64,000 nt of DNA from Candidatus Moraniibacteriota bacterium (GCA_049287345.1 JBAQFQ010000017.1:4555-68554), one strand, 5' to 3'. Counted from the stretch's first letter, positions 8,182 to 39,384 are shown. The notes: generated by a model from the letters alone, not told the origin. Made by a program: numbers and translations.

Positions 8182-8287
8182 AATCTACCTACACTCAAGC
8201 TTCGGCAGACGAGCTCGTTTTGAGTAAATTCTCCACAGCTTGCTTCAAGTAGGGTCCAGGGCAAGCCCCTAGGGTTAATACCTTTTA
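8182..8287 (+). repeat. Family-1 intergenic repeat, copy 1 (AATCTACCTAC..AAGCTTCGG..ACGAGCTCGTTTTGAGTAAATTCTCCACAGCTTGC..GC-rich hairpin..ACCTTTTA)
   Basis: ~85-90% identical to copies at 9421, 21382 and 39278, all on the + strand between + strand genes. Confidence 0.85.
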
Positions 8288-8292
8288 ATAAT

Positions 8293-9447
8293 ATGAAGAA
8301 GCTGGCTATCTTGGGAAGCACAGGTAATGTTGGGACACAAGTTTTAGATGTTGTGGATCAATATCCTGATAAGTTTAAAGTGGTGGCACTTTCGACAAAT
8401 AGTAATATTGAATTATTAAAAACGCAAATAGAAAAATATCAGCCATCTTTTGTGGGAGTAGCCGATGAAATAAAAGCTAAAGAATTAAAGGAACAAATTA
8501 ATGTTCCTATTTTTTTTGGCGAAAAAGTTAATATCCAAATTGCCCAGCTGGAGGAATATGATACTTTGATAAATGCGGTAGTCAGTTTAGCGGGGATTGA
8601 GGCTACTTTAGTCGCTATCGAAAAAAAGAAAAACATCGCCCTAGCAAATAAGGAGGCCTTGGTGGCAGCTGGTGAAATTGTATTAAAGGCAGCTAGAGAA
8701 AATGGGGTAAAGATTATGCCAATTGATTCGGAGCATAGTGCTCTATTTCAATGTTTAAATGGTGAAGATATTAAAACAGTCGAGCAATTAATTATTACTT
8801 GTTCAGGTGGGGCACTGCGAGATAAAACTAAGGAGGAGATTGAATCAGCGACAGTGGTCCAAGCTTTGGGGCATAAAACTTGGGCAATGGGAAAAAAGAT
8901 TACCATTGATTCAGCAACTCTAATGAACAAGGGTTTTGAAGTAATTGAAGCAATGTGGTTGTATGATATGCCCATTGAAAAAATAAAAGTAGTTATTCAT
9001 CCAGAAAGTATCATCCATTCGATGGTGGAGTACACTGATGCGAGCATCATCGCGCAAATATCCGAGCCAGATATGCGACTGCCTATTCAATATGCACTCT
9101 CTTATCCTGAGCGTTGGCAAGCACCAATTAAGAGATTTGAATTTAATAAAAATCTTACCTTTGCTGAGCCTGACTTGGAGAGATTTCCTTGTTTGGGTTT
9201 AGCCTTTTGGGCTGCCAGAGAATTGGGGACATTGCCAGCGGTGATGAATGCCGCCAATGATTTTATGGTGGAAATTTTTTTAAGAGGAGACTGTCGATTT
9301 GGAGAAATTTATAGAATAATTAAGCAGGTTATGGAAGCGCATAAAAATATTAAAAACCCTAGTTTGGCAGAAATTAATCAAGCTATTTTGTGGTCAAGAG
9401 AAAAATCGATGGAGTTTTTTAATCTATCTACGCCCAAGCTTCGGTAG
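8293..9447 (+). CDS. dxr: 1-deoxy-D-xylulose 5-phosphate reductoisomerase
   Basis: N-terminal ILGSTGNVG NADPH-binding motif and full-length similarity to IspC. The last ~9 codons are supplied by repeat copy 2. Confidence 0.9.
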   Translation: MKKLAILGSTGNVGTQVLDVVDQYPDKFKVVALSTNSNIELLKTQIEKYQPSFVGVADEIKAKELKEQINVPIFFGEKVNIQIAQLEEYDTLINAVVSLAGIEATLVAIEKKKNIALANKEALVAAGEIVLKAARENGVKIMPIDSEHSALFQCLNGEDIKTVEQLIITCSGGALRDKTKEEIESATVVQALGHKTWAMGKKITIDSATLMNKGFEVIEAMWLYDMPIEKIKVVIHPESIIHSMVEYTDASIIAQISEPDMRLPIQYALSYPERWQAPIKRFEFNKNLTFAEPDLERFPCLGLAFWAARELGTLPAVMNAANDFMVEIFLRGDCRFGEIYRIIKQVMEAHKNIKNPSLAEINQAILWSREKSMEFFNLSTPKLR

Positions 9448-9530
9448 GCGAGCTCGTTTTGAGTAAATTCTCCACAGCTTGCTAGTAAACAGGGTCCAGG
9501 GGCTTGCCCCTGGGGTTAATTACCTTTTAT
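9421..9530 (+). repeat. Family-1 intergenic repeat, copy 2 (overlaps 3' end of dxr)
   Basis: Same element as 8182..8287. Has a perfect 7-bp stem hairpin CCAGGGG-CTTG-CCCCTGG; the dxr stop codon lies inside the element. Confidence 0.85.
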
Positions 9531-9540
9531 TAAATAATTT

Positions 9541-10236
9541 ATGAATATCGCAATTATTTTAGCCTCAGGCACAGGGAGTCGCATGGGAGCAGGAAAAAAC
9601 AAAACTCTTTTAAAGCTGGCCAATAAGCCACTGATTTATTATGCAATTTCAAATTTTCAAAAATCAACCTTGATAAATAAAATTATTTTAGTGGTTAAGG
9701 ATGGCGAAAAAGAAATCTTTGAGAAAATTGTAAAGAAATATAATTTAAAAAAAGTGAAGGCGGTGATAATTGGTGGGCCGGAGCGCCAAGATAGCGCACA
9801 AAATGGGGTAGAGTTTATTGGAAAAAATTTTAAAGAAATTAATAATGCAATAGTTCTTTTTCATAATGGTGCCAACCCCTTTGTGACAAAAAATGAAATT
9901 GAAACAGTTATTAATAGTGCCAATAAATTTGGTGCAGCAGTCGTGGCCCATAAAACCAAAGATACTATTCGAAAAGTTGATAACAAAGATTTTTCTATAG
10001 GTGTGGTAGAGAGGCATAATCTTTGGAATATGCAAACCCCGCAAGCTATTAAACTAACCTTGGCCCTAAAGGCTTTTCGTCAAGCTAAACAAGATAATTT
10101 TCTAGGCACAGATGATGTCTCTCTGGTAGAGCGATTGGGCAAAAAAGTTAAAATTGTAGAGGCGAGTACAAATAATTTTAAAATTACTACCCCGTTGGAT
10201 TTCGAGCTGGCAAAAATAATTTTAAAGAAAATTTAA
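9541..10236 (+). CDS. ispD: 2-C-methyl-D-erythritol 4-phosphate cytidylyltransferase
   Basis: N-terminal AIILASGTGSRMG motif typical of IspD. Confidence 0.85.
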   Translation: MNIAIILASGTGSRMGAGKNKTLLKLANKPLIYYAISNFQKSTLINKIILVVKDGEKEIFEKIVKKYNLKKVKAVIIGGPERQDSAQNGVEFIGKNFKEINNAIVLFHNGANPFVTKNEIETVINSANKFGAAVVAHKTKDTIRKVDNKDFSIGVVERHNLWNMQTPQAIKLTLALKAFRQAKQDNFLGTDDVSLVERLGKKVKIVEASTNNFKITTPLDFELAKIILKKI

Positions 10237-10330
10237 TAAGATTTTTAAAATTATATTAAACTTTCAACACTGCTATGGATTGCATTATTATTTGCACGGT
10301 ATAATTGTTAATTAAGTAATCATCACAATT

Positions 10331-10819
10331 ATGTTTAGAATAGGTTTTGGACAAGATTCTCATCGCTTTAGTGAGGATGAGAATAAAAAACTAATTTTAG
10401 GTGGAGTTGAGATTGGCGGAGAGCGAGGGTTAGTATCGAATTCTGATGGAGATTTAATTTTACATGCAATTTGTGCGGCGATTGAGCAATCTTTGGGAAG
10501 AGTTAATTTTTCTGTGTATGCAGATGAGATGTGTCAGCGGGGAATAATTGATAGTGGAGAATATCTAAAGGTGGCCAAAAATCACCTTAAAGAGGCTGGT
10601 TATGCGGTTAATAATCTAGGTATTTCTATTGAGGGAAAAAGACCAAAAATATTACCAATAGAGGATAAAATAAAGGATAATTTAGCAAGGATTCTAGAGA
10701 TAGACAAACAACAGTTGGGAATCAATGCTACTAGCGGAGAGGGTTTAACGGCTTTTGGGCGAGGAGAAGGCATACAAGTATTTGTAATTATTAGTCTTAA
10801 AAAAGATGAAAAAAGTTAA
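10331..10819 (+). CDS. ispF: 2-C-methyl-D-erythritol 2,4-cyclodiphosphate synthase
   Basis: RIGFGQDSHRF start with the metal-binding D-x-H, and DGDLILHA motifs. Confidence 0.9.
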   Translation: MFRIGFGQDSHRFSEDENKKLILGGVEIGGERGLVSNSDGDLILHAICAAIEQSLGRVNFSVYADEMCQRGIIDSGEYLKVAKNHLKEAGYAVNNLGISIEGKRPKILPIEDKIKDNLARILEIDKQQLGINATSGEGLTAFGRGEGIQVFVIISLKKDEKS

Positions 10820-11675
10820 ATTGTTTTCACCAGCCAAAATTAATTTAACCCTGGAAATTATCAAAAAACTTCCCAATGGTTTTCATGATCTGCGTTCAGT
10901 GATGTATAAAACTGAAAATTTAAAAGATGAAGTGGAAATAACCTTCAACCATCGTCAAACGGGAATTAAAATAATTTGTAATAATAAAAATGTTCCCATT
11001 GATGAAAAAAATATTTGCCACAAAATTGCCCAGAAATTTTTTGTAGTTTCAGGGAAAAGAGTAGGACTAAATATCAAGATAAAGAAACGAATTCCTTTGG
11101 CGGCGGGATTAGGTGGGGGTAGCTCAAATGGAGCTGCGGTTTTGTTGGCGCTGAATAAATATTTCAAAAAACCCTTGAAATATAAGGATTTAGTGACTCT
11201 GGCGGCGGAGGTTGGCAAAGACATTCCCTTTTTTATTTCTAAAAAGAAAGAGGCACTGGTTAAGGGGGCGGGAGAAAAGGTGCAAACTATTAAAAATTTT
11301 CCTAAACTTAATTTATTATTGATAAATCCTCAAGGAGAAATTAGCACCGCCTGGGCTTATTCGCAGTTGGATGAGCGCATGTGGTTTATGGAAAATTCAC
11401 AAAGAAAAAATATTTCACGGAAATTATTAAAATGCGGTAATAGCGCAGAATGTATTGGCCAAAATGTTTATAATGATTTTTCCATTGTTGCTGAGGAATT
11501 ATTTCCAGTGATCAAAGAAATTAAAAATGCCTTAATTGTTTTTGGGGCAGTGGGCGCTGAGATTACCGGCAAGGGTCCAACAGTGGTGGGATTTTTAAAA
11601 ACAAAAAATGACGCCATTGCTATGCGACGGAGGTTAAGAAAAAAGTATCCTCAATTTTTTATCGAAATAGCTTAA
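10806..11675 (+). CDS. ispE: 4-diphosphocytidyl-2-C-methyl-D-erythritol kinase
   Basis: PAKINLTL N-terminus and GHMP-kinase motif PLAAGLGGGSSNGAA; overlaps ispF by 14 nt, suggesting operon coupling. Confidence 0.85.
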   Translation: MKKVKLFSPAKINLTLEIIKKLPNGFHDLRSVMYKTENLKDEVEITFNHRQTGIKIICNNKNVPIDEKNICHKIAQKFFVVSGKRVGLNIKIKKRIPLAAGLGGGSSNGAAVLLALNKYFKKPLKYKDLVTLAAEVGKDIPFFISKKKEALVKGAGEKVQTIKNFPKLNLLLINPQGEISTAWAYSQLDERMWFMENSQRKNISRKLLKCGNSAECIGQNVYNDFSIVAEELFPVIKEIKNALIVFGAVGAEITGKGPTVVGFLKTKNDAIAMRRRLRKKYPQFFIEIA

Positions 11676-11753
11676 ATGCAATTTTATATAAGATGGCTGG
11701 AAAGGCTAAATATTTTTTAAATTGACTTAAAAACTACAAATATGTTAGGATAA

Positions 11754-13007
11754 TTGGAAATAATTAAATCCGACATAAATATGAGTAAAAAAGGAAAACA
11801 CAAGAAACGAGGAAAGATTAAAAAGGATTTTAAAACACAAATAATAAAAACAACCGATAACTTAGAACAGAAAGTTTCTACAATTAAAATAGCCAAAGAA
11901 AAACTCGTAAACAAAGGCTGGGAAGTTAAAAAAAACTTTGTTGCTAGGTTAACTGTTGCCCAAGAATTTTTGAGAAATATGATGATTAAAGAGAGGCTAA
12001 ATTCTTTTTATCAAAAAACAAAAGTAACTTTAAAAAAATGGAATAATATTTTTTGTACAGGTATGGTTTGCGAGACAAACCTCAAGCGTGACATTGGTAT
12101 TGTTTCTGTGGCGATATTGGTGGCTGTAGTATTTTTAGTCATGGGGCAATATACTAGCAGGATAAAGGAGGTCGTAGAGGAAAGGGGCGAAATGCTAGTG
12201 GTGGATGAGAGTTTAGTGGCTGAGTTTGAAGAAAATAGTATAGACAATATTCGATCTATTCAGGACAATATCCAAACCCAAGGGTGGAAGGAATTTAGCA
12301 GCGATTGGTATGGTTTTAAGATAAAATATCCCGAAGATTGGGGGGTGCCAACAATTAGTACTTACAAGAAAGATGCATTAGCGGAATATCGAATTTCTTT
12401 TTTAAGTAAATTGCCAGAAGAAAAAAATATTTTAGGTTTTGAAGTTTCAGTTTATAACATTAATAAAATTAAGGAGCTCTCTAGTACTAGTGAATTTCCT
12501 AAAGTTAAAAATTTAGAGCTAAAGAATTCCGGTAGTTGTAATTCATTAGAGGGGCACGTGTTGGAGACAGGTGATTATCCAGCAGAGGAGATTTATATTT
12601 CCCCATTAGATGATTGTTATTTCCCAGTATTATTTTTTTCAGTAACCAAGGGTCAGTATTTGTATAATATTGCACCCATTGTAAGGGAAATTCAAACAGA
12701 TAATGATTTGATGGTGGAGGTGAGTGATAATTTGCCAGAATTTTTTGCAGCTATTTCTCAATTTGAAAATATTGATATTGTCAGGCCAAAACCCAGAGCG
12801 GTTCAGCCAAGAATAACTGCCCCTAAGCCAGCGTCTCATAAGGTAGTGGGTGGTAGGCTAGTTTGCGAGAAGGATAAAGACAAGCCGGGAAAAAGTGATA
12901 AGGGTAAGGGAAAGCATCTAGATATGGAGTGTTGTTTGGATCCAGATGAATATCCTAACCCACACTGCTATTATGACCCCGCTAAGTATGGTAAATATTT
13001 GAAATAG
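11754..13007 (+). CDS. Hypothetical membrane-anchored protein with basic N-terminus and Cys-containing C-terminus
   Basis: One TM helix; no recognisable domain. The start could be an internal Met. Confidence 0.4.
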   Translation: MEIIKSDINMSKKGKHKKRGKIKKDFKTQIIKTTDNLEQKVSTIKIAKEKLVNKGWEVKKNFVARLTVAQEFLRNMMIKERLNSFYQKTKVTLKKWNNIFCTGMVCETNLKRDIGIVSVAILVAVVFLVMGQYTSRIKEVVEERGEMLVVDESLVAEFEENSIDNIRSIQDNIQTQGWKEFSSDWYGFKIKYPEDWGVPTISTYKKDALAEYRISFLSKLPEEKNILGFEVSVYNINKIKELSSTSEFPKVKNLELKNSGSCNSLEGHVLETGDYPAEEIYISPLDDCYFPVLFFSVTKGQYLYNIAPIVREIQTDNDLMVEVSDNLPEFFAAISQFENIDIVRPKPRAVQPRITAPKPASHKVVGGRLVCEKDKDKPGKSDKGKGKHLDMECCLDPDEYPNPHCYYDPAKYGKYLK

Positions 13008-13085
13008 TTTTTTGAAAAGCACTTGTTTTCTAACGAGTGTTTTTTTGTGGGAAAAATATTTTTGGATATGTTATAATTTAGTTAG

Positions 13086-14483
13086 ATGAAAAATAATAAG
13101 AAAAAAAATATTATAAAAATATTAAAAATTCAAGCCTGGATAACAGGCTTATTTTTAGTGGCATATTTACTGGTTTTAAGTTTTGGAGAAAGTGGAGTTT
13201 TTTTATCTGATTTGAATAACAAAAAAAGAGTGGCTGGCGCTATGGTTGGTGCTATGATAAGAATTTTTGGGCCACCGACTCAGCCAGTGGTAAGTGGCAA
13301 TAGTTTTTGCGATAGCAACAATCTTTCTGTCGTTCGTTTGGACTGGGTAAATGTTGTGGATGCGACGAGCTACGATGTTTTTCGGGAGGGGAATTCGGTT
13401 GCCGATGACATAACGGATAATTTTTTATTAGATGAAAATTTATTAAATAATTTTAGTTATAACTATTATGTAGTGGCTAGTGGACCAGCTGGCGTAGCAA
13501 ATTCGGAAGTTATAAATATTTCAACTCAAGGCTGTGAGGCGCCAATCACTTATTATGTTAAAATTGATGATTTTGAAGGAAGATCAATGACTAGTTGGGC
13601 GGGAACTATAACAACAGAAAATCAGCAACCATTTTTTTCGGGTATCGCTTCGAGAGCTGATGCTTGGGTGGAACTAGAAATCTATGGTGACAATGCTTTT
13701 TATGCTAAAACTTTAACTAATCAAAATGGATTTTGGCAGTGGAGGTTTAATAGTAATCTTTTAGTGGGTAATTATTTGATTTATGTTAAATTATTGGATT
13801 TAGACGGAGAAATAGTCTTGGCTCAAGATAGTCTAAATTTTGAGATATTGGCCAAAGACGAAGATAACTCAGAGAAGAAAAAGAAAAAAGAGCAGATTGA
13901 TTTAACCTTAAGTGACTTTAGCTCAACTAAGCAACCCGTAGTTAAAAAGCCTTTTAATCTAGATATTTCATTGAGTAACGATATTTATATTCGAGGTGTA
14001 AGTGTTGATAGGGAGGCTTATCGGGGTGAGGGTCTTGGAACTAGTATTGATTTTAGTGATGTTGTGGTGGGTGGTTTACCTTTAAAAATTTCCTATACAC
14101 TAATCAACGAAAAAAATGAAATTGCATCTCACTATAATGAAGAATATATTTTGGAGAAAAATTTGAGAGTAGAAAAATATATCCCATTGCCACTCTCTTT
14201 GGAGCTAGGCGAATATCGATTAAGAATAGATGCTAGTATTTCGGGCATTACTGTCAGTGATGAAAGCACGTTTATTTTAAAAGATCGGCCGTTGCTCAAA
14301 ATCGGGGCGACTACTTATTTGACTTATCATGATTTAGTGGGTAATTTGAGTTGGCTATTTATTGGGTCTACCTCATTTTTATCATTTTTCTCGATAGCTG
14401 CTATGCGTGAGCATTATTTATATAAGCGAGCAGTTTTTCATATAACGGAAAAAGTTTTAAAAAGAAGAGGTTTTATTAATTAA
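13086..14483 (+). CDS. Hypothetical surface protein with Fn3-like domain and C-terminal TM anchor
   Basis: N-terminal TM, then VVRLDWVNVVDATSYDVFREG (Fn3-like), then a C-terminal hydrophobic segment. Confidence 0.4.
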   Translation: MKNNKKKNIIKILKIQAWITGLFLVAYLLVLSFGESGVFLSDLNNKKRVAGAMVGAMIRIFGPPTQPVVSGNSFCDSNNLSVVRLDWVNVVDATSYDVFREGNSVADDITDNFLLDENLLNNFSYNYYVVASGPAGVANSEVINISTQGCEAPITYYVKIDDFEGRSMTSWAGTITTENQQPFFSGIASRADAWVELEIYGDNAFYAKTLTNQNGFWQWRFNSNLLVGNYLIYVKLLDLDGEIVLAQDSLNFEILAKDEDNSEKKKKKEQIDLTLSDFSSTKQPVVKKPFNLDISLSNDIYIRGVSVDREAYRGEGLGTSIDFSDVVVGGLPLKISYTLINEKNEIASHYNEEYILEKNLRVEKYIPLPLSLELGEYRLRIDASISGITVSDESTFILKDRPLLKIGATTYLTYHDLVGNLSWLFIGSTSFLSFFSIAAMREHYLYKRAVFHITEKVLKRRGFIN

Positions 14484-14504
14484 AAAAATAAACACATCCT
14501 TAAG

Positions 14505-14816
14505 GTGGATGAAAAAAATATGCAAAATTATTTGGTGATTGGTTTACAAATTATATCCTTAATTCTATTGGCTTTTTCGCTAGTTTTTACCTTGGGAATT
14601 ATTTGGCGAGTAGAGATGAAGCTTGACTCGGCCTATAAGGTTTTTTTTGTAGCCTTGGTCTTTATTTTTTTAGCTACAGTATTGGATGTTTTTATAAAAA
14701 ATGAATTTTTTATTATAGTGGATAAGGTGCTAAATTTATTATTTGCTATTTTTTTATTGGTAGGTATTTGGATGATGCGAGATTTAATGAGAAATATCGA
14801 CGGTGAAAAACGTTAG
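14505..14816 (+). CDS. Small integral membrane protein (3 TM)
   Basis: Hydrophobicity pattern only. Confidence 0.35.
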   Translation: MDEKNMQNYLVIGLQIISLILLAFSLVFTLGIIWRVEMKLDSAYKVFFVALVFIFLATVLDVFIKNEFFIIVDKVLNLLFAIFLLVGIWMMRDLMRNIDGEKR

Positions 14817-14845
14817 AAGTAAGCAGCTTGTAAGAAACGGCAAGA

Positions 14846-15583
14846 TTGCTAAGTTTTTTAAAAAATAGTAAGATAGACATGATGTATAAGGTTATGTTGG
14901 AACAATTTGAGGGCCCAATGGATCTTCTCCTTGATTTAATTAGTAAGGAGAAGATGGATATTACTAATATCAGCTTGGCGCAGATAACTGATCAGTACTT
15001 AGATTATCTAGAAAAGAAAGAAGATATCAATCTAGTTAATTTGGCTGATTTTTTAACTGTGGCAGCAAAACTGATTTTAATTAAATCTAAAGCATTGTTG
15101 CCCCTCTTAGATTTAAGTAACGAAGAGGAAGAAGAAATTTTTGATTTAGAAAAACAATTAGCAGAATATCGAAAGTTTAAAATAGCCGCTCAACAGTTGG
15201 AAACGATTTATAATGATAAGCGGCAATCTTTTTCCCGAGACAATTTTTTAGAAGTGGAGGTTCGATTTTCTCCACCTAAAGGAATCGGCCCTAGTGAATT
15301 AGCCAGTATTTATGAGGATATTTTGGGTCAGATTCCCATTTTGGAAAAGTTAGAAGAGGAAAAAGTGGCTAGAATAATTTCTCTTAAGGAGCGTATCGAT
15401 AGTCTCAAGAAGATGCTAACCCTTAAGGCAGAGTTTAATTTTAGTGAGTTGATCAAAAAGGGGGAGGATAAGGTTGAGATAATCGTTTCATTTTTAGCGG
15501 TATTGGAAATGGTAAAGAGACGAATTGTCATAGTGGAGCAAGATGAGATGTTTTATGAAATTAAACTTAAGCGAGGTAACTAA
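14846..15583 (+). CDS. scpA: Segregation and condensation protein A
   Basis: FEGPMDLLLDLI N-terminal kleisin motif. Confidence 0.85.
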   Translation: MLSFLKNSKIDMMYKVMLEQFEGPMDLLLDLISKEKMDITNISLAQITDQYLDYLEKKEDINLVNLADFLTVAAKLILIKSKALLPLLDLSNEEEEEIFDLEKQLAEYRKFKIAAQQLETIYNDKRQSFSRDNFLEVEVRFSPPKGIGPSELASIYEDILGQIPILEKLEEEKVARIISLKERIDSLKKMLTLKAEFNFSELIKKGEDKVEIIVSFLAVLEMVKRRIVIVEQDEMFYEIKLKRGN

Positions 15584-15600
15584 AATAGTAAGCGTATAAT

Positions 15601-16158
15601 ATGGAAAAAGAAAAATTAAAATCAATTATTGAAAGTATCTTATTTGCTAGGGGCGAGGAGATTGAATATGCTCAGCTAGCTAAAATTATTGAAGTGGATG
15701 AGGAGGCGATTAAACAGGCAGTAGAGGAATTAATTTCAGAGTATAATACTGCACAGCGGGGATTTAATATTGTCAAAAATGAAAAGGCCATTCAGCTGGT
15801 GACCAATCCTGATAACGCTGAAATTGTAGAAAAAACTATCAAAAAAAATCTGCAAGAAAATATGACCAAAACAGCCTTAGAGGTTTTGGCAATTGTGGCT
15901 TATCGGGGACCTGTTTCCCATTCAGATATTGAGGCAATTCGGGGAGTAAACTCTAGCTTTACTTTGCGCAATTTGCTTATGCGAGGGTTGATTATCAAAA
16001 ATGTAAATGATAATGATCAGCGAGGATATCTATACAGTATTGCGACTGAATTTATAAAAAAAATGGGTATTGGAAAAATAGAGGAACTCCCTGATTATGA
16101 AAATTTATCCAAAGATAAAAGAGTAGAATCGATCATTAATTTAAATACAGAAAAATAA
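15601..16158 (+). CDS. scpB: Segregation and condensation protein B
   Basis: IESILFARGEE winged-helix N-terminus; immediately downstream of scpA. Confidence 0.8.
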   Translation: MEKEKLKSIIESILFARGEEIEYAQLAKIIEVDEEAIKQAVEELISEYNTAQRGFNIVKNEKAIQLVTNPDNAEIVEKTIKKNLQENMTKTALEVLAIVAYRGPVSHSDIEAIRGVNSSFTLRNLLMRGLIIKNVNDNDQRGYLYSIATEFIKKMGIGKIEELPDYENLSKDKRVESIINLNTEK

Positions 16159-16165
16159 ATTTATT

Positions 16166-21381: not shown

Positions 21382-21485
21382 AATCCACCTACGCTAAAGC
21401 TTCAGTGGACGAGCTCGTTTTGAGCAAATTCTCCGCAGCTTACTGAAAGTAGGGTTTAGGGCTTTATCTGGGGTTAGTAATTTTT
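21382..21485 (+). repeat. Family-1 intergenic repeat, copy 3 (most diverged)
   Basis: Keeps the ACGAGCTCGTTTTGAG core. Compensatory changes TTCAGT / ACTGAA relative to the other copies. Confidence 0.8.
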
Positions 21486-21549
21486 ATTAATTAATTAAAG
21501 ATAATTTTATATATTTTTATAAAAATATATAGGAATTATCCACAAACGT

Positions 21550-28416: not shown

Positions 28417-28422
28417 ATAATT

Positions 28423-30546: not shown

Positions 30547-30562
30547 TTTTTTCTTTAAAATA

Positions 30563-30963: not shown

Positions 30964-30965
30964 AA

Positions 30966-31000: not shown

Positions 31001-31028
31001 TTTGTTCAATAAGTAAATTGAATATTTA

Positions 31029-31850
31029 CTACTTTACTATTTCAAATCTTTTTTCCTGCCAAGCAGCAAAGCCTCCGCGCAGAGTATAAGTGGCTAGTAA
31101 TCCTAAATCATTGAGTTTAACACTCGCTTTAAAATCATCATCGTTATTAGCGCCATAAACTAAAATTTCCTTGGAAACAGGGAGCTCACTTTTTCTTTTT
31201 TCGAGTTCTGCTAGGGGAATATTGACCGCTCCAGGAATGTGTCCGGTGCTATATTGAGAAGCCAAACGGACATCTAGTACAAAAACCGGATATTGGCCCT
31301 CAAGGGCTAATTTGAGCTGCTCAGGGATGATGTAGTCCACCTTGGACCAGTCCAGGGCAGACTCTTTATCTCCGCCGCCAATAAGAGGGGTGCCTTCTTC
31401 TGCCCAACCTTTAATTCCACCGGTAAGCGCTAGAACATTTTTAAAATTCAACTCAATTTTAAGTTTTTTTATAACAGCAGAAACATCGGTCATCTTGTCG
31501 TAATCATAGCCCACAACTACTACTAAATTATCCTTATTTAGTTCACTAATTGTTTTTTCAAAATTTTCCGGAGAAAGATTGATGGATTTTTGAATATGAT
31601 TTTTTTCAAAATTTACGGCGTCTCTTATGTCCAATATAGCTAAATCTTCCTTGGCGATTATTTTGGTGTTGAGTTCTAGTGAAGTTATATATTTATAATC
31701 GGAATAGGTCGGAGTTTTAGTTGCCACTGGCAAATCTTCGGGAGTTTTATTTAACAGGGAGCTTTTGATTAGAGTGAAACATAAAACCACGACTATCAGG
31801 AGGATGCCAAAAAAAATTATTTTATTTTCTTTTTTTTCTTTTGAGTTCAT
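31029..31850 (-). CDS. Membrane-anchored tandem rhodanese-like domain protein (no catalytic Cys evident)
   Basis: Two rhodanese-fold segments (DIRDAVNFEKNHIQKSINL; LDVRLASQYSTGHIPGAVNIP). The active-site loop reads VYGANNDDD instead of CxxGxR. Confidence 0.55.
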   Translation of the reverse strand: MNSKEKKENKIIFFGILLIVVVLCFTLIKSSLLNKTPEDLPVATKTPTYSDYKYITSLELNTKIIAKEDLAILDIRDAVNFEKNHIQKSINLSPENFEKTISELNKDNLVVVVGYDYDKMTDVSAVIKKLKIELNFKNVLALTGGIKGWAEEGTPLIGGGDKESALDWSKVDYIIPEQLKLALEGQYPVFVLDVRLASQYSTGHIPGAVNIPLAELEKRKSELPVSKEILVYGANNDDDFKASVKLNDLGLLATYTLRGGFAAWQEKRFEIVK

Positions 31851-31853
31851 AAT

Positions 31854-32813
31854 TTATTTTAAAATACTGCCAATGAAATTTGGATAACCATTAAGAAAAT
31901 CTTCTATAGTAACTTCATTTTTTCCAGCTAGCTGAATTTTCTTGAGTACAATTATTCCATCATTAGTTTGAACTCCCACTAGGTTGTCAGTTTTAAAAAC
32001 TTCTCCTAGGTGGTATCTTTTTTCTAAAATATTATTTTGAGCAACTATCTCGTTGAGAGATATTTTTTGAAGATTACCTTTGTTTTCCCAGAAAGTAAAA
32101 ATTCCTGGCCAGACACGAAAGGCTCTAAGTTTATTATAAATATCTTTAGCATCTTGGTCCCAACTTATTTTGCCATCATTCTTTTCAATTAATTGGCAAA
32201 GTGTTGCTTGGGAGTTGTCTTGGGGGGTGGGCTTGAGGGTGCCGGCGGTCCACTCGGTAATGGTAGAAATTAGTAAATGGGCGGCATTAACAGCCATTTT
32301 TCCGCCTAAGGTTAAGTAATCATCATGTGGATCAATGGGGATAATCTTTTGCGCCAAGATGTCTCCAGTGTCAACGCCCTTATCCATTAGCATTATGGTT
32401 ATGCCACTTTGCTCTAGACCCTCAATGAGAGCATTTTGAATGGGTGATGAACCTCTTAATTTTGGCAAAAGCGAGGCGTGGACGTTAATTGATTTGTAAC
32501 GCGGTATCTTGAGAATTTTTTCTGGAATTATTTTTCCAAAAGCAACTACTATAATAAGATCAGGCTTAAACTCTTCAATTTTTTTTTCAAAATCTAGATC
32601 CAGTTTAATGGGTTGAAGGAGGGGGATATTTTTTTCGGTAGCAATTTTTTTAACAGGACTCAAGACAACCTCCTTCCCATTTTTTGATAGGTAATCTGGT
32701 TGCGTTACGACGGCACAGATGGGGTAATTTTCTGCTAGTAAGGTTTCTAATACCAAGCTAGCAATGTCTGGGGTGCCCATAAAAACGATTGATGGTTTTT
32801 TTGTTTCTGACAT
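31854..32813 (-). CDS. fmt: Methionyl-tRNA formyltransferase
   Basis: IVFMGTPDIA N-terminus; SLLPKLRG and HASLLP formyltransferase motifs. Confidence 0.9.
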   Translation of the reverse strand: MSETKKPSIVFMGTPDIASLVLETLLAENYPICAVVTQPDYLSKNGKEVVLSPVKKIATEKNIPLLQPIKLDLDFEKKIEEFKPDLIIVVAFGKIIPEKILKIPRYKSINVHASLLPKLRGSSPIQNALIEGLEQSGITIMLMDKGVDTGDILAQKIIPIDPHDDYLTLGGKMAVNAAHLLISTITEWTAGTLKPTPQDNSQATLCQLIEKNDGKISWDQDAKDIYNKLRAFRVWPGIFTFWENKGNLQKISLNEIVAQNNILEKRYHLGEVFKTDNLVGVQTNDGIIVLKKIQLAGKNEVTIEDFLNGYPNFIGSILK

Positions 32814-32824
32814 ATTTATTTTTT

Positions 32825-33253
32825 TTATCTGTTTATAAAAAGAATTCCTTCTAAATGATCAATCTCGTGTTGAAATGCTCGAGCTAGTAACTCAGTAGCT
32901 TTTATCTTGCACGGTTCTCCTTTTTCATTTAAATATCTAACCTGCACAGTTTCAAAACGTTTAACGGGAATAAATTTTTTAGGAAAACTTAGGCAACCTT
33001 CCTCGGTGATTATTTTTTCGTTAGAGTGAGCAGTAATTTTTGGATTGATTAGTACGTACGTCTTTCCTGCGTGCTCGATAATGCAAAGTCTGATGGATTC
33101 ACCAATCTGAGGAGCCGCCAAGCCCATGCCACTATTTTCTCGCATGGTTTTAATCATGGCTGGAATCAATGCCTGAATTTTGGGGTCAAGCGGGTTTTTT
33201 ACATTGGTAGCTTTTTTTTCTAAAATTGGATTGGGATAAGTTAGTATTTCCAT
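32825..33253 (-). CDS. def: Peptide deformylase
   Basis: GMGLAAPQIG, EGCLSFP and HEIDHLEG metal-binding motifs. Confidence 0.9.
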   Translation of the reverse strand: MEILTYPNPILEKKATNVKNPLDPKIQALIPAMIKTMRENSGMGLAAPQIGESIRLCIIEHAGKTYVLINPKITAHSNEKIITEEGCLSFPKKFIPVKRFETVQVRYLNEKGEPCKIKATELLARAFQHEIDHLEGILFINR

Positions 33254-33265
33254 GATTGTGATGAT

Positions 33266-33622
33266 TTATTGTGTAAAGTTGTTCCGATATAGGGTTTTTA
33301 CCTCTTTGTCACAGTAAACTTTAATTTTTACAGAGCCCTGATTTAAGGGTTGGTTAATAATAACACTTTCTTGGTTATTTTTCAAGACAGATAGACTACC
33401 TTGATCAATGGGTGTTTCATTAAGAAATAATTCCCAGGAGAAGTCTTTTTTGTTGGTATAATTTTCAATAGTAAAATCAAGGGATGAAGCTTGGGGGTTT
33501 TTGAAATATAAAAACCAACCATCTTTAAGTTTATTTTGATTATTTTCAATGATAGCTAAGAAGGAGAAGCTAAGGACAATGAAAATACTTAACGTTATTA
33601 AAATAATTTTTTGATTGAACAT
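33266..33622 (-). CDS. Small secreted/anchored hypothetical protein
   Basis: N-terminal hydrophobic segment only. Confidence 0.35.
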   Translation of the reverse strand: MFNQKIILITLSIFIVLSFSFLAIIENNQNKLKDGWFLYFKNPQASSLDFTIENYTNKKDFSWELFLNETPIDQGSLSVLKNNQESVIINQPLNQGSVKIKVYCDKEVKTLYRNNFTQ

Positions 33623-33642
33623 ATGTTTTTTTAAATATTAAC

Positions 33643-35685
33643 TTATTTTTTGTAAAAAATAGAGAGACTTGGCCCTTCATATATCTTGGAAAATTGAGGG
33701 TTGGATTCAAATTGGGGTCCATCAACTGAGGTATCCACTGCAATATAATGAGTTTTGGTGGCGAGATAACAGGATTGAGCTCTCTCGGAGGATGGCTCAC
33801 TAATCATCCAGAGTGTGCACATTTCTCGGGGCTTAGTGGGATCTTCGTATCTTTTGAAATATCCGCGCGAGAGAGGGTAATTGTAGTCCTTAAGGAAAAA
33901 TAATTTTATCCAAGAATCAGCGGTAATGTAATTATGATCCTTGAGAAAGTTTTCCTCATTGGCTTCTGGACGAAGAGCAATCTGCTCGGCTAAAAATTTA
34001 GAAAGATGAAAAGTTTGCAGAGCTCTTTGACTTTTTTGTCCATCAGAAAGTGACCCAGAGTTGTCGTAGTAGCCAGCAAAGATAATAGTAGTAAATATTG
34101 CGATAAACCCAAGGCGAGTTATATTTTTAGAGATGTTGAAATTATTTTCTATTTTTTGCAGAGAGACAATTAGGTAAATTAACCCTAAAGAGGAGAGAAT
34201 AATAAAGGGAAAATTAGCATAATTAGATACTCTTTCTGAGGGAAGATTTATATGTAGATAGTGTGGGAAAACGGTCATAAAAAATAAGCAAAGTGCCCAG
34301 CCAATAAGGATAGTGGCAGGTAGTAATTTTCTATAATCATCTTTTATCTCCCAAGATTTAATGACGCCAACAATCATCAAAACAAAGATACCAATAATCC
34401 CCAGGGCTAATCTTAATTCTCCTACAGCGTATTTAAATTGCTCTAGGGTGAGTCCTGCTCTAGTGGACTTAGACGGCGCCCCTACAGCAGTGGATGTAGC
34501 TGAGGGGGATAGATAACTAGGTGTATAAACTAGAAATAAAAATAATATAGCCCCGATAAAAAATAATATTATTTGGGGACGAATAAATATCGACATTAAG
34601 TCTTTAAATACTTTTTGGTAAGTTTGCCAGAGAGTGGGAATTTTATTGGAGGAGGCATTGAATATTTTTTGTAAAATAAGTAATCCATTAAAAGTTAGGA
34701 AAATAAAAGCTAAAATAAAGAGAAAGATGAATCCACTTAAGTGATGAGTATAAAATAAACCAGCACTTAAAAATAAGCCCAAAAATAAAAACCAGGAATT
34801 TTTTTCTTTGAGGGCTCGATAAAATAGGTAGAGGCAAAGTGGAATTAGTAAGTTACCAATCAAATTGCCAATAACTCCGCCACTTACAAATTTGGCCTGG
34901 GGGGAAGTAATTGCATAGATGGGACCAATTATTAACAAGCTGAGAATAGCTAGATTAGTAGAATTGATTATTTTTTCGTAAAAAGTATCGGCAAAAATTC
35001 TTAAAGTCAAAATGAATATTGCTAATATGCTAAAGATATTGATAGCAAATAAAATAAGGGCTGGGAAATAGGAATTAAATGGAATTTTGCTCAGGAGATT
35101 AATGCCGGAAAAAATTAAATGTTCACCAATGATAAAGTCAGCGATGGAGTTGGACTCAAGGCGGTATTCATTATCTTGTTTTACGATTTCGATTTTCTGG
35201 TAATCGGGTATTTTTCCAGTTTGGGCAGTTAGTTTTGACCAATACATATGGTGGCCCAAGTCAGTAGCAGTAGGGAAAATAGCGTCTTTTAAATAGGCAG
35301 TTTTAATGAAAATCGTTAGAAATAAGATCAGGACAATCAAAATAGTCTGACTCCGGGTAAAGATTATTTTAGGTAGAGATTTTTTTGGTTGAAGGGGGTT
35401 TTTGCGGACTAAAAATTTATAAAGAGCATACAAGCTGATTATAAATAGGGAAAATAAAATAAGGATTAATTTTTGATTTATAAGAAGGCCTAATTTTCCA
35501 GAAAGAATTATCAGAAAATCAAAGACAATAAGACTGAGGGCAAAAGACAGCACAGCTATTTCAATTGGCAAAAAGAGATGGTTTGTTTTTTTTCTAAAAA
35601 TAGCAAGTAATAAAAAATATCCTGGTAGAATCAGTAAGAAAATAAAACTTAAGAAAAAAAGCAGTAGTTCAATAAAAATAGACAT
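33643..35685 (-). CDS. Polytopic membrane protein, putative GT-C-type glycosyltransferase (ArnT/PMT-like)
   Basis: More than 12 TM helices plus a C-terminal soluble domain; operon context with a GT2 polyprenyl-phosphate sugar synthase and a GT4. Confidence 0.35.
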   Translation of the reverse strand: MSIFIELLLFFLSFIFLLILPGYFLLLAIFRKKTNHLFLPIEIAVLSFALSLIVFDFLIILSGKLGLLINQKLILILFSLFIISLYALYKFLVRKNPLQPKKSLPKIIFTRSQTILIVLILFLTIFIKTAYLKDAIFPTATDLGHHMYWSKLTAQTGKIPDYQKIEIVKQDNEYRLESNSIADFIIGEHLIFSGINLLSKIPFNSYFPALILFAINIFSILAIFILTLRIFADTFYEKIINSTNLAILSLLIIGPIYAITSPQAKFVSGGVIGNLIGNLLIPLCLYLFYRALKEKNSWFLFLGLFLSAGLFYTHHLSGFIFLFILAFIFLTFNGLLILQKIFNASSNKIPTLWQTYQKVFKDLMSIFIRPQIILFFIGAILFLFLVYTPSYLSPSATSTAVGAPSKSTRAGLTLEQFKYAVGELRLALGIIGIFVLMIVGVIKSWEIKDDYRKLLPATILIGWALCLFFMTVFPHYLHINLPSERVSNYANFPFIILSSLGLIYLIVSLQKIENNFNISKNITRLGFIAIFTTIIFAGYYDNSGSLSDGQKSQRALQTFHLSKFLAEQIALRPEANEENFLKDHNYITADSWIKLFFLKDYNYPLSRGYFKRYEDPTKPREMCTLWMISEPSSERAQSCYLATKTHYIAVDTSVDGPQFESNPQFSKIYEGPSLSIFYKK

Positions 35686-35848
35686 AGGGACTTAATTAGT
35701 ACATTAGGTTAATTTTATTTATGTTGACGATGGGGTTGCCATCAAATAATCTTAAATCTGCCAGTAAGTATCTATATAGTAGCACATTGTAAGGGACATG
35801 TTAATGTGTAAAATGGTTGATCTTTTTCGGATAATTTTTAAATATAAA

Positions 35849-35877
35849 AAGCGCGAAGTTGGATACTTCGCGCTAAT
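35849..35877 (-). terminator. Rho-independent terminator (minus strand) after the GT4 gene
   Basis: GCGCGAAGT-ATCCAACT-TCGCGC hairpin with a U tract on the minus strand. Confidence 0.5.
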
Positions 35878-35888
35878 TTGTGGAATTG

Positions 35889-37022
35889 TTAGATATTGGT
35901 GAGCTCCTTGAAATAGCGTTTACCAACAGCTTCCCAGGAGAAATTTTCAAATGTAAAGCTTTGGGCTTGAGCGCCAAATTTTTCCATTAAATCTTCATCG
36001 GTTAAGACATTTTTTATTTTTTGAGCATACTGCTGCGCATTTTGGGGTTCTACTAAAAAGCCATTTTTGCCATCGATTATTGCATCCTTAAGTCCTTCTA
36101 AGTCGGCTGCTATTACCACTTTAGCACAAGCCGCTCCTTCAATAGCATTAATACCAAATCCTTCCATGGAGCCAGGTACTTTAATGTTGGGGGAAATAAA
36201 TAAATCAACCGTATTAAAGAGAAGATTCATGTGTTGTTGTGAGATGTTGGTGAATAATTTAACGCGTTCGGTTAAATTTTGTTGTTGGATATTTTTTTCA
36301 CAATCTGGAAAGATATCGCTATCGCCAACTGTCTTTTTAGCTACTCGGCCACCAGCTCCAACTAGGATGTAATTTGAGGGGAGCAGCGGCATAACTTCTT
36401 TAATAAACCAATCTAAGCCCTTGTGTCGGACGAAACGACCAACTCTTAAAATTACCTTTTTATCAGTTAAATCTAGATCTAAAAAATTAGCTAAATCTTT
36501 TCTATTAAAATTGGAGCAAACCTTATCTTTATCAAATCCATTGGGAATAAAGACACATTTTTCTTGAGAAATGCCCAGTTTAACAGCCTCCAGGATGGTG
36601 TAATTGCCAACCATAATAAGTTTATCCATTTTGCCAATAGCTGGAATGATAAGCATTTTGTAAATTTTTCCTAAAAATGATTTTTTATAAGCAAAGGTTA
36701 AATCTAGGCCATGAATAATGCTGGCTACCTTTTTTTGGGGATAAATAAGTTTAAAAAATATTCCCAAAGGAGAAAGAACACCGTCGCCAAAAAGAATTAC
36801 GTCATATTTTCGAGCGGAGTAGATCCCCGTAAAGGCAGTCTTAATTAGAAACAGGGGTAGAAATTTCTTTCCACGTGTATTGGCGATTATTTTTACTTCA
36901 GTTAAGCGAGAAAGTTCAGTGGCAATTCCATAGTTTTGGTTTTCGATACCGCCGAGAGTTGGCGGATAAGCCCTAGAGATAAATAAGATGCGAGGTTTTT
37001 TATTCATTTTTTTTGAATTCAC
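35889..37022 (-). CDS. GT4 family glycosyltransferase
   Basis: E-x7-E region MEGFGINAIEGAA; GT-B fold motifs. Confidence 0.75.
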   Translation of the reverse strand: MNSKKMNKKPRILFISRAYPPTLGGIENQNYGIATELSRLTEVKIIANTRGKKFLPLFLIKTAFTGIYSARKYDVILFGDGVLSPLGIFFKLIYPQKKVASIIHGLDLTFAYKKSFLGKIYKMLIIPAIGKMDKLIMVGNYTILEAVKLGISQEKCVFIPNGFDKDKVCSNFNRKDLANFLDLDLTDKKVILRVGRFVRHKGLDWFIKEVMPLLPSNYILVGAGGRVAKKTVGDSDIFPDCEKNIQQQNLTERVKLFTNISQQHMNLLFNTVDLFISPNIKVPGSMEGFGINAIEGAACAKVVIAADLEGLKDAIIDGKNGFLVEPQNAQQYAQKIKNVLTDEDLMEKFGAQAQSFTFENFSWEAVGKRYFKELTNI

Positions 37023-37977
37023 GTTTTCTTTTATTATAAAAGTAAGATTTTAGTAAATACATCTGATCTTCAGTTAATTTACGATTAGTTTTTATCATAT
37101 CTGCAATTAAGGCGAAAATTATGGCTTGGAGGCCAATTAGAAAAAGGGTTACAGAAAGTAGGAGGTAATTTCGGTAAGGAGAAACTTTAAAATCTTGAAA
37201 ATAGAAGAAAAGAAAGAAGATAAATATTAATAAAGAAGCAATAATTAAAATTAGTCCAGGGATGCCAAAAAATTTCATTGGGCGAACATCGCGAATGGCC
37301 TTAATGATTATTTTAAAGCTATTGTTAACAAAATGATAAACACTTTTAACTACTCGAGATTTTCGATCAGCAAAATAAGTGACGGTAACCGGAACCCATT
37401 TTAACTTTAGATTTTTCCCCAAGGCATCAATGATGGTTTCTTGGGTATAAGTAAATCCGCCAGGTAGATTAAGCTTCAACATTGTTTCACTATTCATCGC
37501 TCGAAACCCACAAGTTAAGTCTTTTATTTTAAATTGCATAAATTTCCCAACTGTATTGGCGGCAAATCGATTGAGAAAATCTTTTATCCAGGGAATATTT
37601 TTAGCCTTATGCTCACCAAAGCGGTCAGCAATAACCATATCAGCCTCGCCATTTAAGATGGGGTCGAGCAACTTTTGAATATCATTGGGATCAAACTGTC
37701 CATCAGCATCAATATTAACCATCATATCAGCACCTTGATCCAGAGCATTGGTAACGGCGGTCTTGAAAACTACCCCAATTCCTCGGTTAGTATTGTGAGA
37801 AACAACGAAATCTGCCCCAGCTTCTCGAGAGACTTCGGCAGTTCTATCTTTAGAGCCATCGTTGACTACCTGAATTAAAACTTCGCTAATCCCATTAAAT
37901 TTTCTGGGGATTCTTCTAATAGTTTGACCAATTTTCTCTTCCTCATTAAAGGCTGGTAAGTTTACAATAAGTTTCAT
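37000..37977 (-). CDS. GT2 family polyprenyl-phosphate glycosyltransferase (DPM1/GtrB/ArnC-like) with C-terminal TM segments
   Basis: VVNDGSKD, DADGQFD (DxD), and C-terminal TM helices; overlaps the GT4 gene by 23 nt. Confidence 0.75.
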   Translation of the reverse strand: MKLIVNLPAFNEEEKIGQTIRRIPRKFNGISEVLIQVVNDGSKDRTAEVSREAGADFVVSHNTNRGIGVVFKTAVTNALDQGADMMVNIDADGQFDPNDIQKLLDPILNGEADMVIADRFGEHKAKNIPWIKDFLNRFAANTVGKFMQFKIKDLTCGFRAMNSETMLKLNLPGGFTYTQETIIDALGKNLKLKWVPVTVTYFADRKSRVVKSVYHFVNNSFKIIIKAIRDVRPMKFFGIPGLILIIASLLIFIFFLFFYFQDFKVSPYRNYLLLSVTLFLIGLQAIIFALIADMIKTNRKLTEDQMYLLKSYFYNKRKREFKKNE

Positions 37978-38132
37978 AATAATGGTTTTTTTAAATAATT
38001 ATTATCAGAAAGTTATTTTAATATTAGCTTAAAAGTATGATTTTAGCAATGTAAAGCTAGCTGAATATAATTTGGCAAATGTTCTTTTTTAGATTAGGAT
38101 AATAGGGAGTTGTTATTATTGTTGGGTAAAAT

Positions 38133-39251
38133 ATGCTGAGAAAAATATTAAAATTAGATTGGATTTTAATTGGAGCAGTAGCTTCTCTTTTGGGTGTGGG
38201 CTTATTGGCGTTGTATAGTATTTCTGTGGCAGAAAAATCTACAGCAGAGATGACTTTTTTTGTTAAACAAATTGTGGCGGTAGCTATCAGTATTTTTCTT
38301 CTGATTATTTTTTCCTTGATGGATTATCATTATTTCCGTTTGCATAGTAAAATAATTTACTTCTTGATGATAATTTTATTATTAGTAGTTTTGGTGAAAG
38401 GCTCCTTAATTAGGGGGACGACTGGTTGGATTAGCATTGGTTTTTTTAATTTACAGCCAGTGGAATTTTCTAAGGTGTTGTTAATTCTATCCTTGGCTAG
38501 TTTTATTACAAAAAGTAAGGCAATGCTGGGTGAGGTTACTAGAATTATTGCCTCTTTTGCTATTGCGGGGGTAATTATCTTTTTAGTTTTAATGCAACCA
38601 GATTTTGGTAGTGCTTTAGTTCTGGTAGCGATTTTATTGATTATGCTCTTGTTATCGGGTATTGAGTGGAAGTATTTGGCGACCTTATTCTTTCTGGGAA
38701 TTTTGAGTTTGATTATGATTTGGTTTTTACTGGCTGACTATCAAAAAAACAGAATAGTAAATTTTGTTAATCCGGAAAACGATCCTCGCGGGAGTGGATA
38801 TAATGTGATTCAATCAATGATTGCCGTGGGATCTGGTGGCGTGATGGGCAAAGGTTTAGGACATGGTTCACAATCACAGCTTAATTTTTTACCAGAAAAT
38901 CACACCGACTTCATCTTTGCGGTAATTGTTGAAGAATTTGGAGTTTTTGGTGCAGGGGTGGTAATCATGCTTTTTTTGACAATTTTCTATAGATTAAAAA
39001 AGATAGCTGAAATGGCAATGGATAATTTTGGTTATTTAATTGTCACCGGGGCCATGGCGATGCTTTTTGTGCAAGTGCTAGTTAATATTGGTATGAATAT
39101 TGGGGTTATGCCAGTAACAGGTATCCCGTTGGTTTTTCTAAGTTATGGGGGGAGCTCTTTGATTGCCTCATTTATTTTGATAGGAATTGTGAACAATATT
39201 TTCTTGGTTAGTCAGCGAAATATTGAAAATAGGATAGATATGGAGCAATAA
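38133..39251 (+). CDS. SEDS-family peptidoglycan polymerase FtsW/RodA
   Basis: 10-TM profile; conserved FLPE..TDFIFAVI.EE.G segment. Confidence 0.85.
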   Translation: MLRKILKLDWILIGAVASLLGVGLLALYSISVAEKSTAEMTFFVKQIVAVAISIFLLIIFSLMDYHYFRLHSKIIYFLMIILLLVVLVKGSLIRGTTGWISIGFFNLQPVEFSKVLLILSLASFITKSKAMLGEVTRIIASFAIAGVIIFLVLMQPDFGSALVLVAILLIMLLLSGIEWKYLATLFFLGILSLIMIWFLLADYQKNRIVNFVNPENDPRGSGYNVIQSMIAVGSGGVMGKGLGHGSQSQLNFLPENHTDFIFAVIVEEFGVFGAGVVIMLFLTIFYRLKKIAEMAMDNFGYLIVTGAMAMLFVQVLVNIGMNIGVMPVTGIPLVFLSYGGSSLIASFILIGIVNNIFLVSQRNIENRIDMEQ

Positions 39252-39277
39252 TTATAGTTTACTGAGGAATAATTTTT

Positions 39278-39384
39278 AATCTACCTACGCCCAAGCTTCG
39301 GTAGACGAGCTCGTTTTGAGTAAATTCTCCACAGCTTGCTGTAAATAGGGCCCAGGGCTTGCCCCAGGAATGGACACCTTTTAT
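39278..39384 (+). repeat. Family-1 intergenic repeat, copy 4
   Basis: Same element as 8182..8287. Confidence 0.85.

Follow-up and report, generated by a model that had tools for sequence, protein, structure and literature searches.

The window studied here, a stretch of 64,000 nucleotides (nt) from a Candidatus Moraniibacteriota bacterium (GCA_049287345.1 JBAQFQ010000017.1:4555-68554), contains four copies of a non-coding element of 104-108 nt, all on the + strand. We conclude, with a probability of about 0.82, that these copies represent a small (~100 nt plus a repeated TTTTA), non-coding, and non-autonomous mobile element that is moved in trans by an enzyme encoded elsewhere. The element has been mobile recently and is new as a sequence family. 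It is inserted at TTTTA in one orientation relative to this target, its empty alleles carry no scar, and it has neither inverted repeats nor coding capacity.

Occurrence of the element in the window

Copy 1 (8183-8287, 105 nt) lies between an M23 peptidase gene and dxr, 5 nt upstream of the dxr ATG, and copy 2 (9422-9529, 108 nt) lies between dxr and ispD. Copy 3 (21383-21486, 104 nt), the most diverged of the window copies, is located between murB and a ribosome hibernation factor gene, and copy 4 (39279-39383, 105 nt) is located downstream of ftsW, before a 99-amino acid (aa) open reading frame (ORF) and the L25 gene. The genes flanking all four copies are on the + strand. An earlier note, made from the sequence alone, had placed four + strand copies at these sites, which was borne out; the boundaries were then refined by use of the empty sites described below. 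When aligned, copies 1-4 showed a mean column identity of 84% over the aligned parts (~105 nt). The 24-mer GAGCTCGTTTTGAGTAAATTCTCC had four matches in the window at up to three mismatches, all on the + strand, compared with none in 100 dinucleotide-preserving shuffles. A profile made from the copies recovered exactly the four known copies in the 64 kb and no degenerate ones, and matches to the left-end and right-end patterns in the window were likewise confined to the known copies.

Filled and empty sites in related strains

Contigs for comparison (from public assemblies of this population) were obtained via exact protein look-ups. The Logan accession SRR28062869 represents the window strain, with contigs L004, L006, and L117 being 100% identical to the window, whereas SRR27069941 (L001 and L005) represents an ~97% strain, with flanks 95-99% identical to the window. 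In the SRR27069941 strain, clean empty sites were found at copies 1 and 4, yet copy 2 was present. At site 1, the filled allele in the window reads ...TTTTTTATTTTA, followed by the insert ATCTACC...ACCTTTTA and then by ATAATATG, and the empty allele in L001 reads ...TTTTTTATTTTAATAATATG, with the junction stretch ATTTTAATAATATG. The pentanucleotide TTTTA at the left junction of copy 1 (8178-8182, + strand) is single in L001 and stands on either side of the insert in the window. At site 4, the empty allele in L005 reads ...AATTTTTAGTTAAATTTT, and the window has 105 nt more. The BLAST flank pieces overlapped by TTTTAAT at site 1 and by TTTTA at site 4, and the insert was 105 nt at both.

The two remaining sites were also polymorphic. 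Site 2 was filled in L001 and empty in L002 and L003, where the dxr stop precedes the ispD ATG by 4 nt; this is the layout of relatives with 83% Dxr identity (1.27-Mb contig, GCA_053613725.1). Site 3 was filled in L004 and in L114 (SRR22388065), whose MurB is 95% identical, and empty in L115, whose MurB is 70% identical and in which the intergenic sequence downstream is still recognizably homologous. Filled junctions recur in independent assemblies, namely the NCBI metagenome-assembled genome (MAG), Logan SRR28062869, SRR27069941, and SRR22388065, and each empty allele lies on a contig that runs uninterrupted across the site. In L001 (9861-9917) and L114 (2939-2977), the contig ends fall inside the element, as would be expected if assembly had broken at a repeat present many times per genome.

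L001 also differs from the window in gene content. A 243-aa ORF (6630-7361, no Pfam match; window 6624-7358) is replaced by 23 nt, and 276 nt stand in place of a caspase-domain ORF (3137-4270) and a 293-aa ORF (4336-5217; window 2797-5332). Upstream, L001 carries chemoreceptor and solute-binding genes that are absent from the window.

Rewriting of the dxr C-terminus by copy 2

The dxr gene (8293-9447, + strand) encodes a protein with three Pfam DXP reductoisomerase domains and a counterpart of 100% identity in a Candidatus Moraniibacteriota MAG; the C-terminus of this protein has been rewritten by copy 2. Codon 377 straddles the junction, with two of its bases inside copy 2, and residues 378-384 (LSTPKLR) and the stop codon (9445-9447) consist of copy 2 DNA. 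The earlier claim that copy 2 supplies the last codons and the stop of dxr was thus confirmed for the last seven codons, the stop, and two bases of codon 377. In-silico excision of 9422-9529 gave ...ATG GAG TTT TTT ATT AAA TAA ttt ATG, that is, a restored Dxr of 378 aa ending in MEFFIK (FFIK before the stop), with ispD 3 nt on, a layout as in L002. Copy 2 swapped the last two dxr codons (IK) for NLSTPKLR and changed the dxr-ispD spacing from ~3 nt to 93 nt.

Relatives of Dxr are mostly 378-381 aa long, a few having N-terminal extensions, and a length of 378 aa is seen in four of the closest. In the set of Dxr homologues inspected, a tail of the form NL(S/P)TPKLR was found only in the two element carriers, P0001 and P0002; the others end in IFKK, IFNKKI, IFNNL, IFNDLK, and similar sequences. 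This comparison of C-termini in relatives without the element favors insertion, because the tail is confined to carriers. For annotators, the tail NLSTPKLR is best treated as element-derived. At the other end of the gene, no recognizable Shine-Dalgarno sequence was found upstream of the dxr ATG in either the filled or the empty allele (window 8270-8295, L001 8700-8740).

Target site, junctions, and orientation

A single boundary scheme, flank-TTTTA/AT-hairpin...ACC-TTTTA/flank (slashes mark the boundaries), fits all five independent sites known. The fifth site, positions 688-796 of the JGI metagenome contig L011 (32% GC), reads TTTTA/AT...TTTTA/ and is ~70% identical to the window copies; it was the only full-length relative found besides these copies and their strain counterparts. 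TTTTA occurs on both sides of all five copies, and a single TTTTA without a scar occurs in the empty alleles. Since the pentanucleotide is asymmetric and directly precedes the left end of each of the five copies, the element has one orientation relative to its target. Beyond TTTTA, the flanks of the five targets are AT-rich without other conservation. As for the left junction that the earlier note had described as common to every copy, TTTTAATC is indeed present at all four left junctions in the window; copy 1 has ATTTTAATC instead of TTTTTAATC. A direct reading revealed no terminal inverted repeats, with no complementarity between the left end ATCTACCTAC and the right end, whose reverse complement is GGTATTAACC in copy 1 and GGTAATTAAC in copy 2.

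Of the 855 TTTTA sites in the window (+ strand, 414; - strand, 441), only 170 are intergenic. All copies, however, lie between genes or at the extreme 3' terminus of one. Their locations therefore reflect selection, insertions being tolerated only outside genes or right at a gene's end. All four copies are on the G-rich strand, the + strand being G-rich throughout the window.

Anatomy of the element and divergence among copies

Three consecutive hairpins are predicted in the element. Hairpin 1, the left-end module, occupies 9423-9448 in copy 2 (TCTATC-TACGCCCAAGCTTC-GGTAGG), and 8184-8209, 21384-21409, and 39280-39305 in copies 1, 3, and 4, respectively; it lies 2 nt from the left junction and has a 6-base pair (bp) stem, and its 14-nt loop contains an inner GC/GC pair. 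The central hairpin 2 (9449-9481 in copy 2; also 8210-8242, 21410-21442, and 39306-39338) contains the best-conserved core, GAGCTCGTTTTGAG.AAATTCTCC, and 95-100% of its cells in the alignment are paired; in L011, both members of the pair at columns 40/59 have changed, from G-C to A-U. The GC-rich hairpin 3 is subterminal on the right, 11-16 nt ahead of the terminal TTTTA. In copy 2, it forms the perfect hairpin CCAGGGG-CTTG-CCCCTGG, confirmed at 9496-9513 as previously described, and in copies 1, 3, and 4 it is imperfect or shifted. In L011, a direct reading gave a perfect 7-bp stem, TCAGGAC-TT-GTCCTGA, with both arms changed.

Across copies 1-4 and L011, 92% of the cells were paired, compared with 33-50% when the partners were slid by 1-3 columns, and three pairs (9/30, 40/59, and 80/97) were changed on both sides. 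The single-sequence folds were unremarkable, with z-scores of -0.1 to -2.0 on the + strand. Drawn from five sequences, the pairing data provide only modest evidence for conservation of the hairpins, and they fit folded DNA and folded RNA alike. Compensatory changes had already been proposed among the window copies, and both examples cited fail. The first, CAAG versus CTTG, concerns the loop of hairpin 3 and not one of its base pairs: the loop is CAAG in copy 1 (8254-8274) and CTTG in the others (e.g. 9496-9513). The two loops are reverse complements of each other, as would be expected if the palindrome had been inverted at the DNA level. The second, TTCAGT/ACTGAA, is private to copy 3, and the orthologous copy in L114 reads TTCGGT. 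Structure-preserving changes nevertheless exist once the diverged L011 copy is included.

Divergence is distributed unevenly along the element, with 83-97% identity between window copies in the 5' 60 nt and 56-72% in the 3' 43 nt. Because the flanks in the strains differ by just 1-5%, this divergence has not arisen in place. The element family combines a constrained 5' part with diverse 3' parts.

Search for further copies, a parent element, and a function

No match to the 24-nt core was found in 185,579 representative genomes, the JGI metagenomes, IMG/VR, or phage and plasmid records, and a relaxed two-block core pattern had no match in genome contigs. The blastn search of a whole copy against phages and plasmids returned just one 21-nt chance match. 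A composite six-frame peptide query against 5.8 billion proteins revealed no ORF call overlapping the element, and further look-ups of window proteins yielded no additional copies. Apart from the diverged L011 copy, the element family thus seems restricted to a narrow lineage of Moraniibacteriota.

The copies share no ORF running through all of them and no promoter or terminator consensus. At the gathering threshold, none of the copies matched an Rfam family; with E-values up to 10 allowed over window 8150-9560 (copies 1 and 2), only a chance rimP match was obtained (18.9 bits versus a cutoff of 47). The literature searched yielded nothing relevant on the sequence of the element, on IS605-type elements at TTTTA or on miniature inverted-repeat transposable elements (MITEs) in Patescibacteria.

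Mechanism of mobilization and alternative explanations

The filled and empty sites and the Dxr C-termini both bore out the MITE-like insertion proposed earlier, and we infer that mobilization occurs in trans. The element inserts immediately 3' of TTTTA, after which TTTTA stands on both sides. A hairpin-recognizing, single-strand route of the IS200/IS605 type (HUH tyrosine transposase) is slightly favored, because terminal inverted repeats are absent, each end carries a subterminal hairpin, and the 5-nt target is strict and oriented; the clean empty sites also fit this route. Given mobility, we would put this route at somewhat below even odds. The conserved 5' 60 nt, with hairpins 1 and 2, would be the part needed by the enzyme, and in the 3' 40 nt just a hairpin and the terminal TTTTA would be needed. 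The dissimilarity of the left and right hairpins speaks against the HUH route, as does a right end equal to the target pentanucleotide, which is accounted for more simply by a true duplication. At the right-end TTTTA, a duplication and an element-borne cleavage site look alike in sequence.

Several observations weigh against a mobile element moved in trans, or against details of its behavior. No transposase was found among the 18 of ~60 window ORFs scanned with Pfam, and no full-length parent with the same ends was found in the window or in the genome, metagenome, viral, plasmid, and phage collections. Between copies 1 and 4, neither of which is present in the 97% strain, identity is only 84% and falls to 68% in the 3' part; this implies either several source lineages or clean loss of old copies in the other strain, by precise excision or allele replacement. 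Gene direction coincides with replication direction at all four copies, and the location of all four on the + strand (chance expectation ~0.07) is suggestive at best, not being significant alone. Target specificity and orientation rest on five sites, which are small numbers.

The strongest alternative is a classical MITE moved by a DDE transposase, in which a staggered cut at TTTTA would leave a true 5-bp target-site duplication and the enzyme would use subterminal binding sites. The presence of the same pentanucleotide around all five copies and once in the empty sites agrees with this explanation, and the size, non-coding nature, and intergenic spread of the element are typical of MITEs. However, there is no inverted repeat at all between the element ends, a strict TTTTA in a single orientation is unusual for DDE elements with 5-bp duplications, and no DDE transposase was detected among the 18 ORFs scanned, nor was a Y1 transposase or TnpB. 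Overall, we consider a classical MITE possible but doubtful; once mobility is granted, a staggered-cut DDE transposase with a true 5-bp duplication becomes a serious contender, still short of an even chance. The MITE label itself describes the behavior of the element well (short flanking direct repeat, small size, lack of coding capacity, four copies in 64 kb), but without terminal inverted repeats the element is not a MITE by definition.

The four copies could also be miniature integrating circles handled by a tyrosine or serine site-specific recombinase, with TTTTA as the crossover core of both element and target. An identical core at both junctions, fixed orientation, scarless empty sites, and the lack of inverted terminal repeats are all compatible with such a circle. 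Site-specific recombinases normally require sites of 20-30 bp, whereas the five targets conserve nothing past the 5-nt core and their flanks are merely AT-rich; in addition, the reconstructed right end-TTTTA-left end junction, read directly, has no inverted arm-binding repeats. This explanation is quite unlikely, and a recombinase route remains improbable even if mobility is taken as given.

A conserved RNA structure at cistron boundaries was the other origin suggested in the earlier note. The copies would then be cis-acting (attenuator, processing site, stabilizer, or small RNA) and, instead of selfish insertions, functional paralogues maintained by selection. Because the copies run in the same direction as the flanking genes, they would be transcribed as sense RNA; in addition, all three hairpins have been retained, G-U pairs outnumber A-C pairs on the + strand, and the 5' 60 nt are much better conserved than the remainder. 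As an origin of the copies, however, a conserved RNA is contradicted by their presence or absence between 97%-identical strains and by the same operon junctions being empty in relatives. The fold z-scores are not exceptional, the copies lack a common promoter or terminator consensus and an Rfam match, and the TTTTA junctions are left unexplained. We therefore regard this origin as very unlikely; inserted copies may still have a secondary RNA effect.

It is hardly credible that the copies are artefacts of assembly or binning, or that recombination or gene conversion, and not transposition, has spread the repeat: the Logan contigs do break inside the element, where assemblers struggle, but the filled junctions recur in independent assemblies, a diverged copy exists in a JGI contig, the empty alleles lie in continuous contigs across the site, and homologous recombination cannot have placed the copies because the flanks of the four sites are unrelated.

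The left-end hairpin belongs to a widespread family

A degenerate pattern for hairpin 1 alone returned 99 matches in metagenome contigs. The matches define a family of hairpins of ~30 nt, with an almost invariant 14-nt loop, TACGCTAAAGCTTC, variable stems of 6-7 bp, and a frequent 3' tail CAAG. Members were found in either orientation in JGI metagenome contigs (L007-L101) and in IMG/VR (L103-L113), and hairpin 1 of the window copies is the same module. The 3' arm, which was unconstrained by the pattern, is conserved and covaries with the 5' arm (positions 4/25: CG 49 and TA 15 versus CA 4 and TG 2), and in viral contigs, stems of unrelated sequence but perfect complementarity bear the same loop. 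The GC content of the host contigs is 29-65%. Of 86 distinct contexts, 74 are intergenic, and the hairpins point either way with respect to genes. Some stand by themselves or in tandem, and others abut tRNA genes, lie among heptamer tandem repeats, or are nested in other repeat units. Hairpin 1 is thus a member of a broad family of hairpins resembling repetitive extragenic palindromic (REP) sequences. On the - strand, CGTC overlaps the foot of hairpin 1 in copies 1, 3, and 4 and in L011, copy 2 having CGCC; in the wider family, the tag is mostly TGTC.

No protein family recurring beside the hairpin was found in the metagenome loci, where clustering of 1160 ORFs gave generic two-component and TPR/cyclase families. 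Rfam gave no match over the hairpin in 20 other loci, and no description of the family was found in Rfam or in the literature searched. It is possible, though rather unlikely, that the left-end hairpin is the recognition module of an undescribed mobilization system common to many bacterial phyla and some phages. If it were, the Moraniibacteriota element would be the first module-bearing unit shown to move, with exact empty sites and a TTTTA target, and the module would either serve as substrate for a hairpin-specific nuclease that is widespread and acts in trans, or be a minimal mobile unit in its own right, seeding distinct composite repeats from genome to genome. Two leads were dropped. A 26/30 match to the hairpin inside an E. 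coli ISNCY-family transposase gene (E = 0.2) lay within coding sequence and was judged to be chance, and strand inference from A-C mismatches in the family was abandoned because the search pattern fixed position 5 as A.

The settings of individual members were diverse. Hairpins in or beside tandem heptamers were seen in L020 (1980-2013), L034 (1131-1161), L060 (3262-3295), L074 (182-215), L016 (4976-5007), L096 (196-229), and L014 (406-531), with units that vary by locus (AAAGACA, CATTGAG, AAATCTN, GGGTACA, GTGAATN, and CCCAAAA-like). Hairpins lay 0-4 nt from the ends of tRNA genes in L018 (741-822; also L033, L045, and L080), L035 (1000-1032), and L056 (2134-2236), and L056 has two tandem 71-nt units, each a duplicated tRNA 5' half split by the hairpin, beside an intact tRNA. 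In GC-richer contigs with differing downstream flanks (L012 ~140-300, L015 1060-1220, L075, L092, L094, and L097), a composite of ~130 nt consists of a hairpin GCTTCGGCGAAACCCGCCGAAGC, the conserved-loop hairpin, and a third hairpin, CCCCGTCC-TTCC-GGACGGGG, flanked by TTTTCGCA and TCTGCGAAGG; this composite could be another repeat element or a structured RNA. A 64-nt repeat unit with the hairpin between AATTTAATGGTTCGCAA and CAGGTCGTACGGAATGGGGA occurs in L078 and L079, with four copies in 2.9 kb of L079. In the AT-rich contig L032 (650-700), the hairpin stands alone between two TTTTA, as TTTTA/ATCTATC-loop-GATGGAT-AAAA-TTTTA/; it is possibly a minimal version of the element, or it may have arisen by chance in AT-rich DNA.

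Comparison with known systems

Genomes of the Candidate Phyla Radiation are ~1 Mb in size and are thought to be poor in mobile DNA. Here, a tiny non-coding element varies between ~97%-identical strains and reshapes an essential isoprenoid operon, through the dxr C-terminus and the dxr-ispD spacing, and it may break metagenome assemblies.

The element resembles bacterial MITEs (Correia/NEMIS of Neisseria, RUP of pneumococcus, and ERIC), which are non-coding and multi-copy, measure ~100-150 nt, lie between genes or at gene ends, and are strain-polymorphic and foldable, with a short repeated target at their flanks; they are co-transcribed with their neighbors and sometimes alter gene ends. In contrast to the element, which has no inverted termini, no parent found, and a fixed, oriented TTTTA, these MITEs have terminal inverted repeats that match a parent insertion sequence and typically duplicate TA or a variable short target.

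Members of the IS200/IS605 family have no inverted terminal repeats, carry subterminal hairpins, insert 3' of an AT-rich tetra- or pentanucleotide, leave no scar, and take one leading-strand orientation. The element shares with them, and with palindrome-associated transposable elements (PATEs), the lack of inverted repeats, the subterminal hairpins, the insertion 3' of a fixed target of 4-5 nt, and the single orientation relative to that target. It differs in that the end hairpins of IS200/IS605 resemble each other and their right cleavage site need not equal the target, whereas hairpin 1 (TCTACC-14 nt loop-GGTAGA) is unrelated to hairpin 3 and the right end of the element is also TTTTA.

Rickettsia palindromic elements (RPEs) are likewise selfish elements of ~100 nt in small genomes, have no dedicated transposase known, and can lie within coding sequence, adding residues to proteins. 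The CGTC-tagged repeats offer a parallel in that CGTC adjoins hairpin 1 on the - strand in four of five copies. REP hairpins with tags and G-T pairs have been described, and the CGTC families have stems of 8-9 bp starting with A-T pairs, loops of 4-5 nt, and a CCA tail (PMC3733652). The element has no sequence similarity to RPEs or CGTC-tagged repeats and lacks the stem, loop, and CCA-tail features of the latter. In REP and REPIN sequences with RAYT transposases, the REPs measure 20-40 nt and their GTAG or CGTC tag stands outside the stem; hairpin 1 is ~30 nt long. The very small dispersed repeats of cyanobacteria (Elhai et al. 2008) may be a further parallel to the left-end hairpin family, which is likewise ~30 nt long, dispersed, found among heptamer repeats, and embedded in other repeats; the hairpin family, however, reaches beyond cyanobacteria, in contigs of 29-65% GC. 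Its left-end hairpin ties the element to a widespread family with a conserved loop, and the lack of inverted repeats together with the strict, oriented TTTTA places the element outside the MITE definition and therefore provides a concrete handle for finding its mobilizing enzyme.

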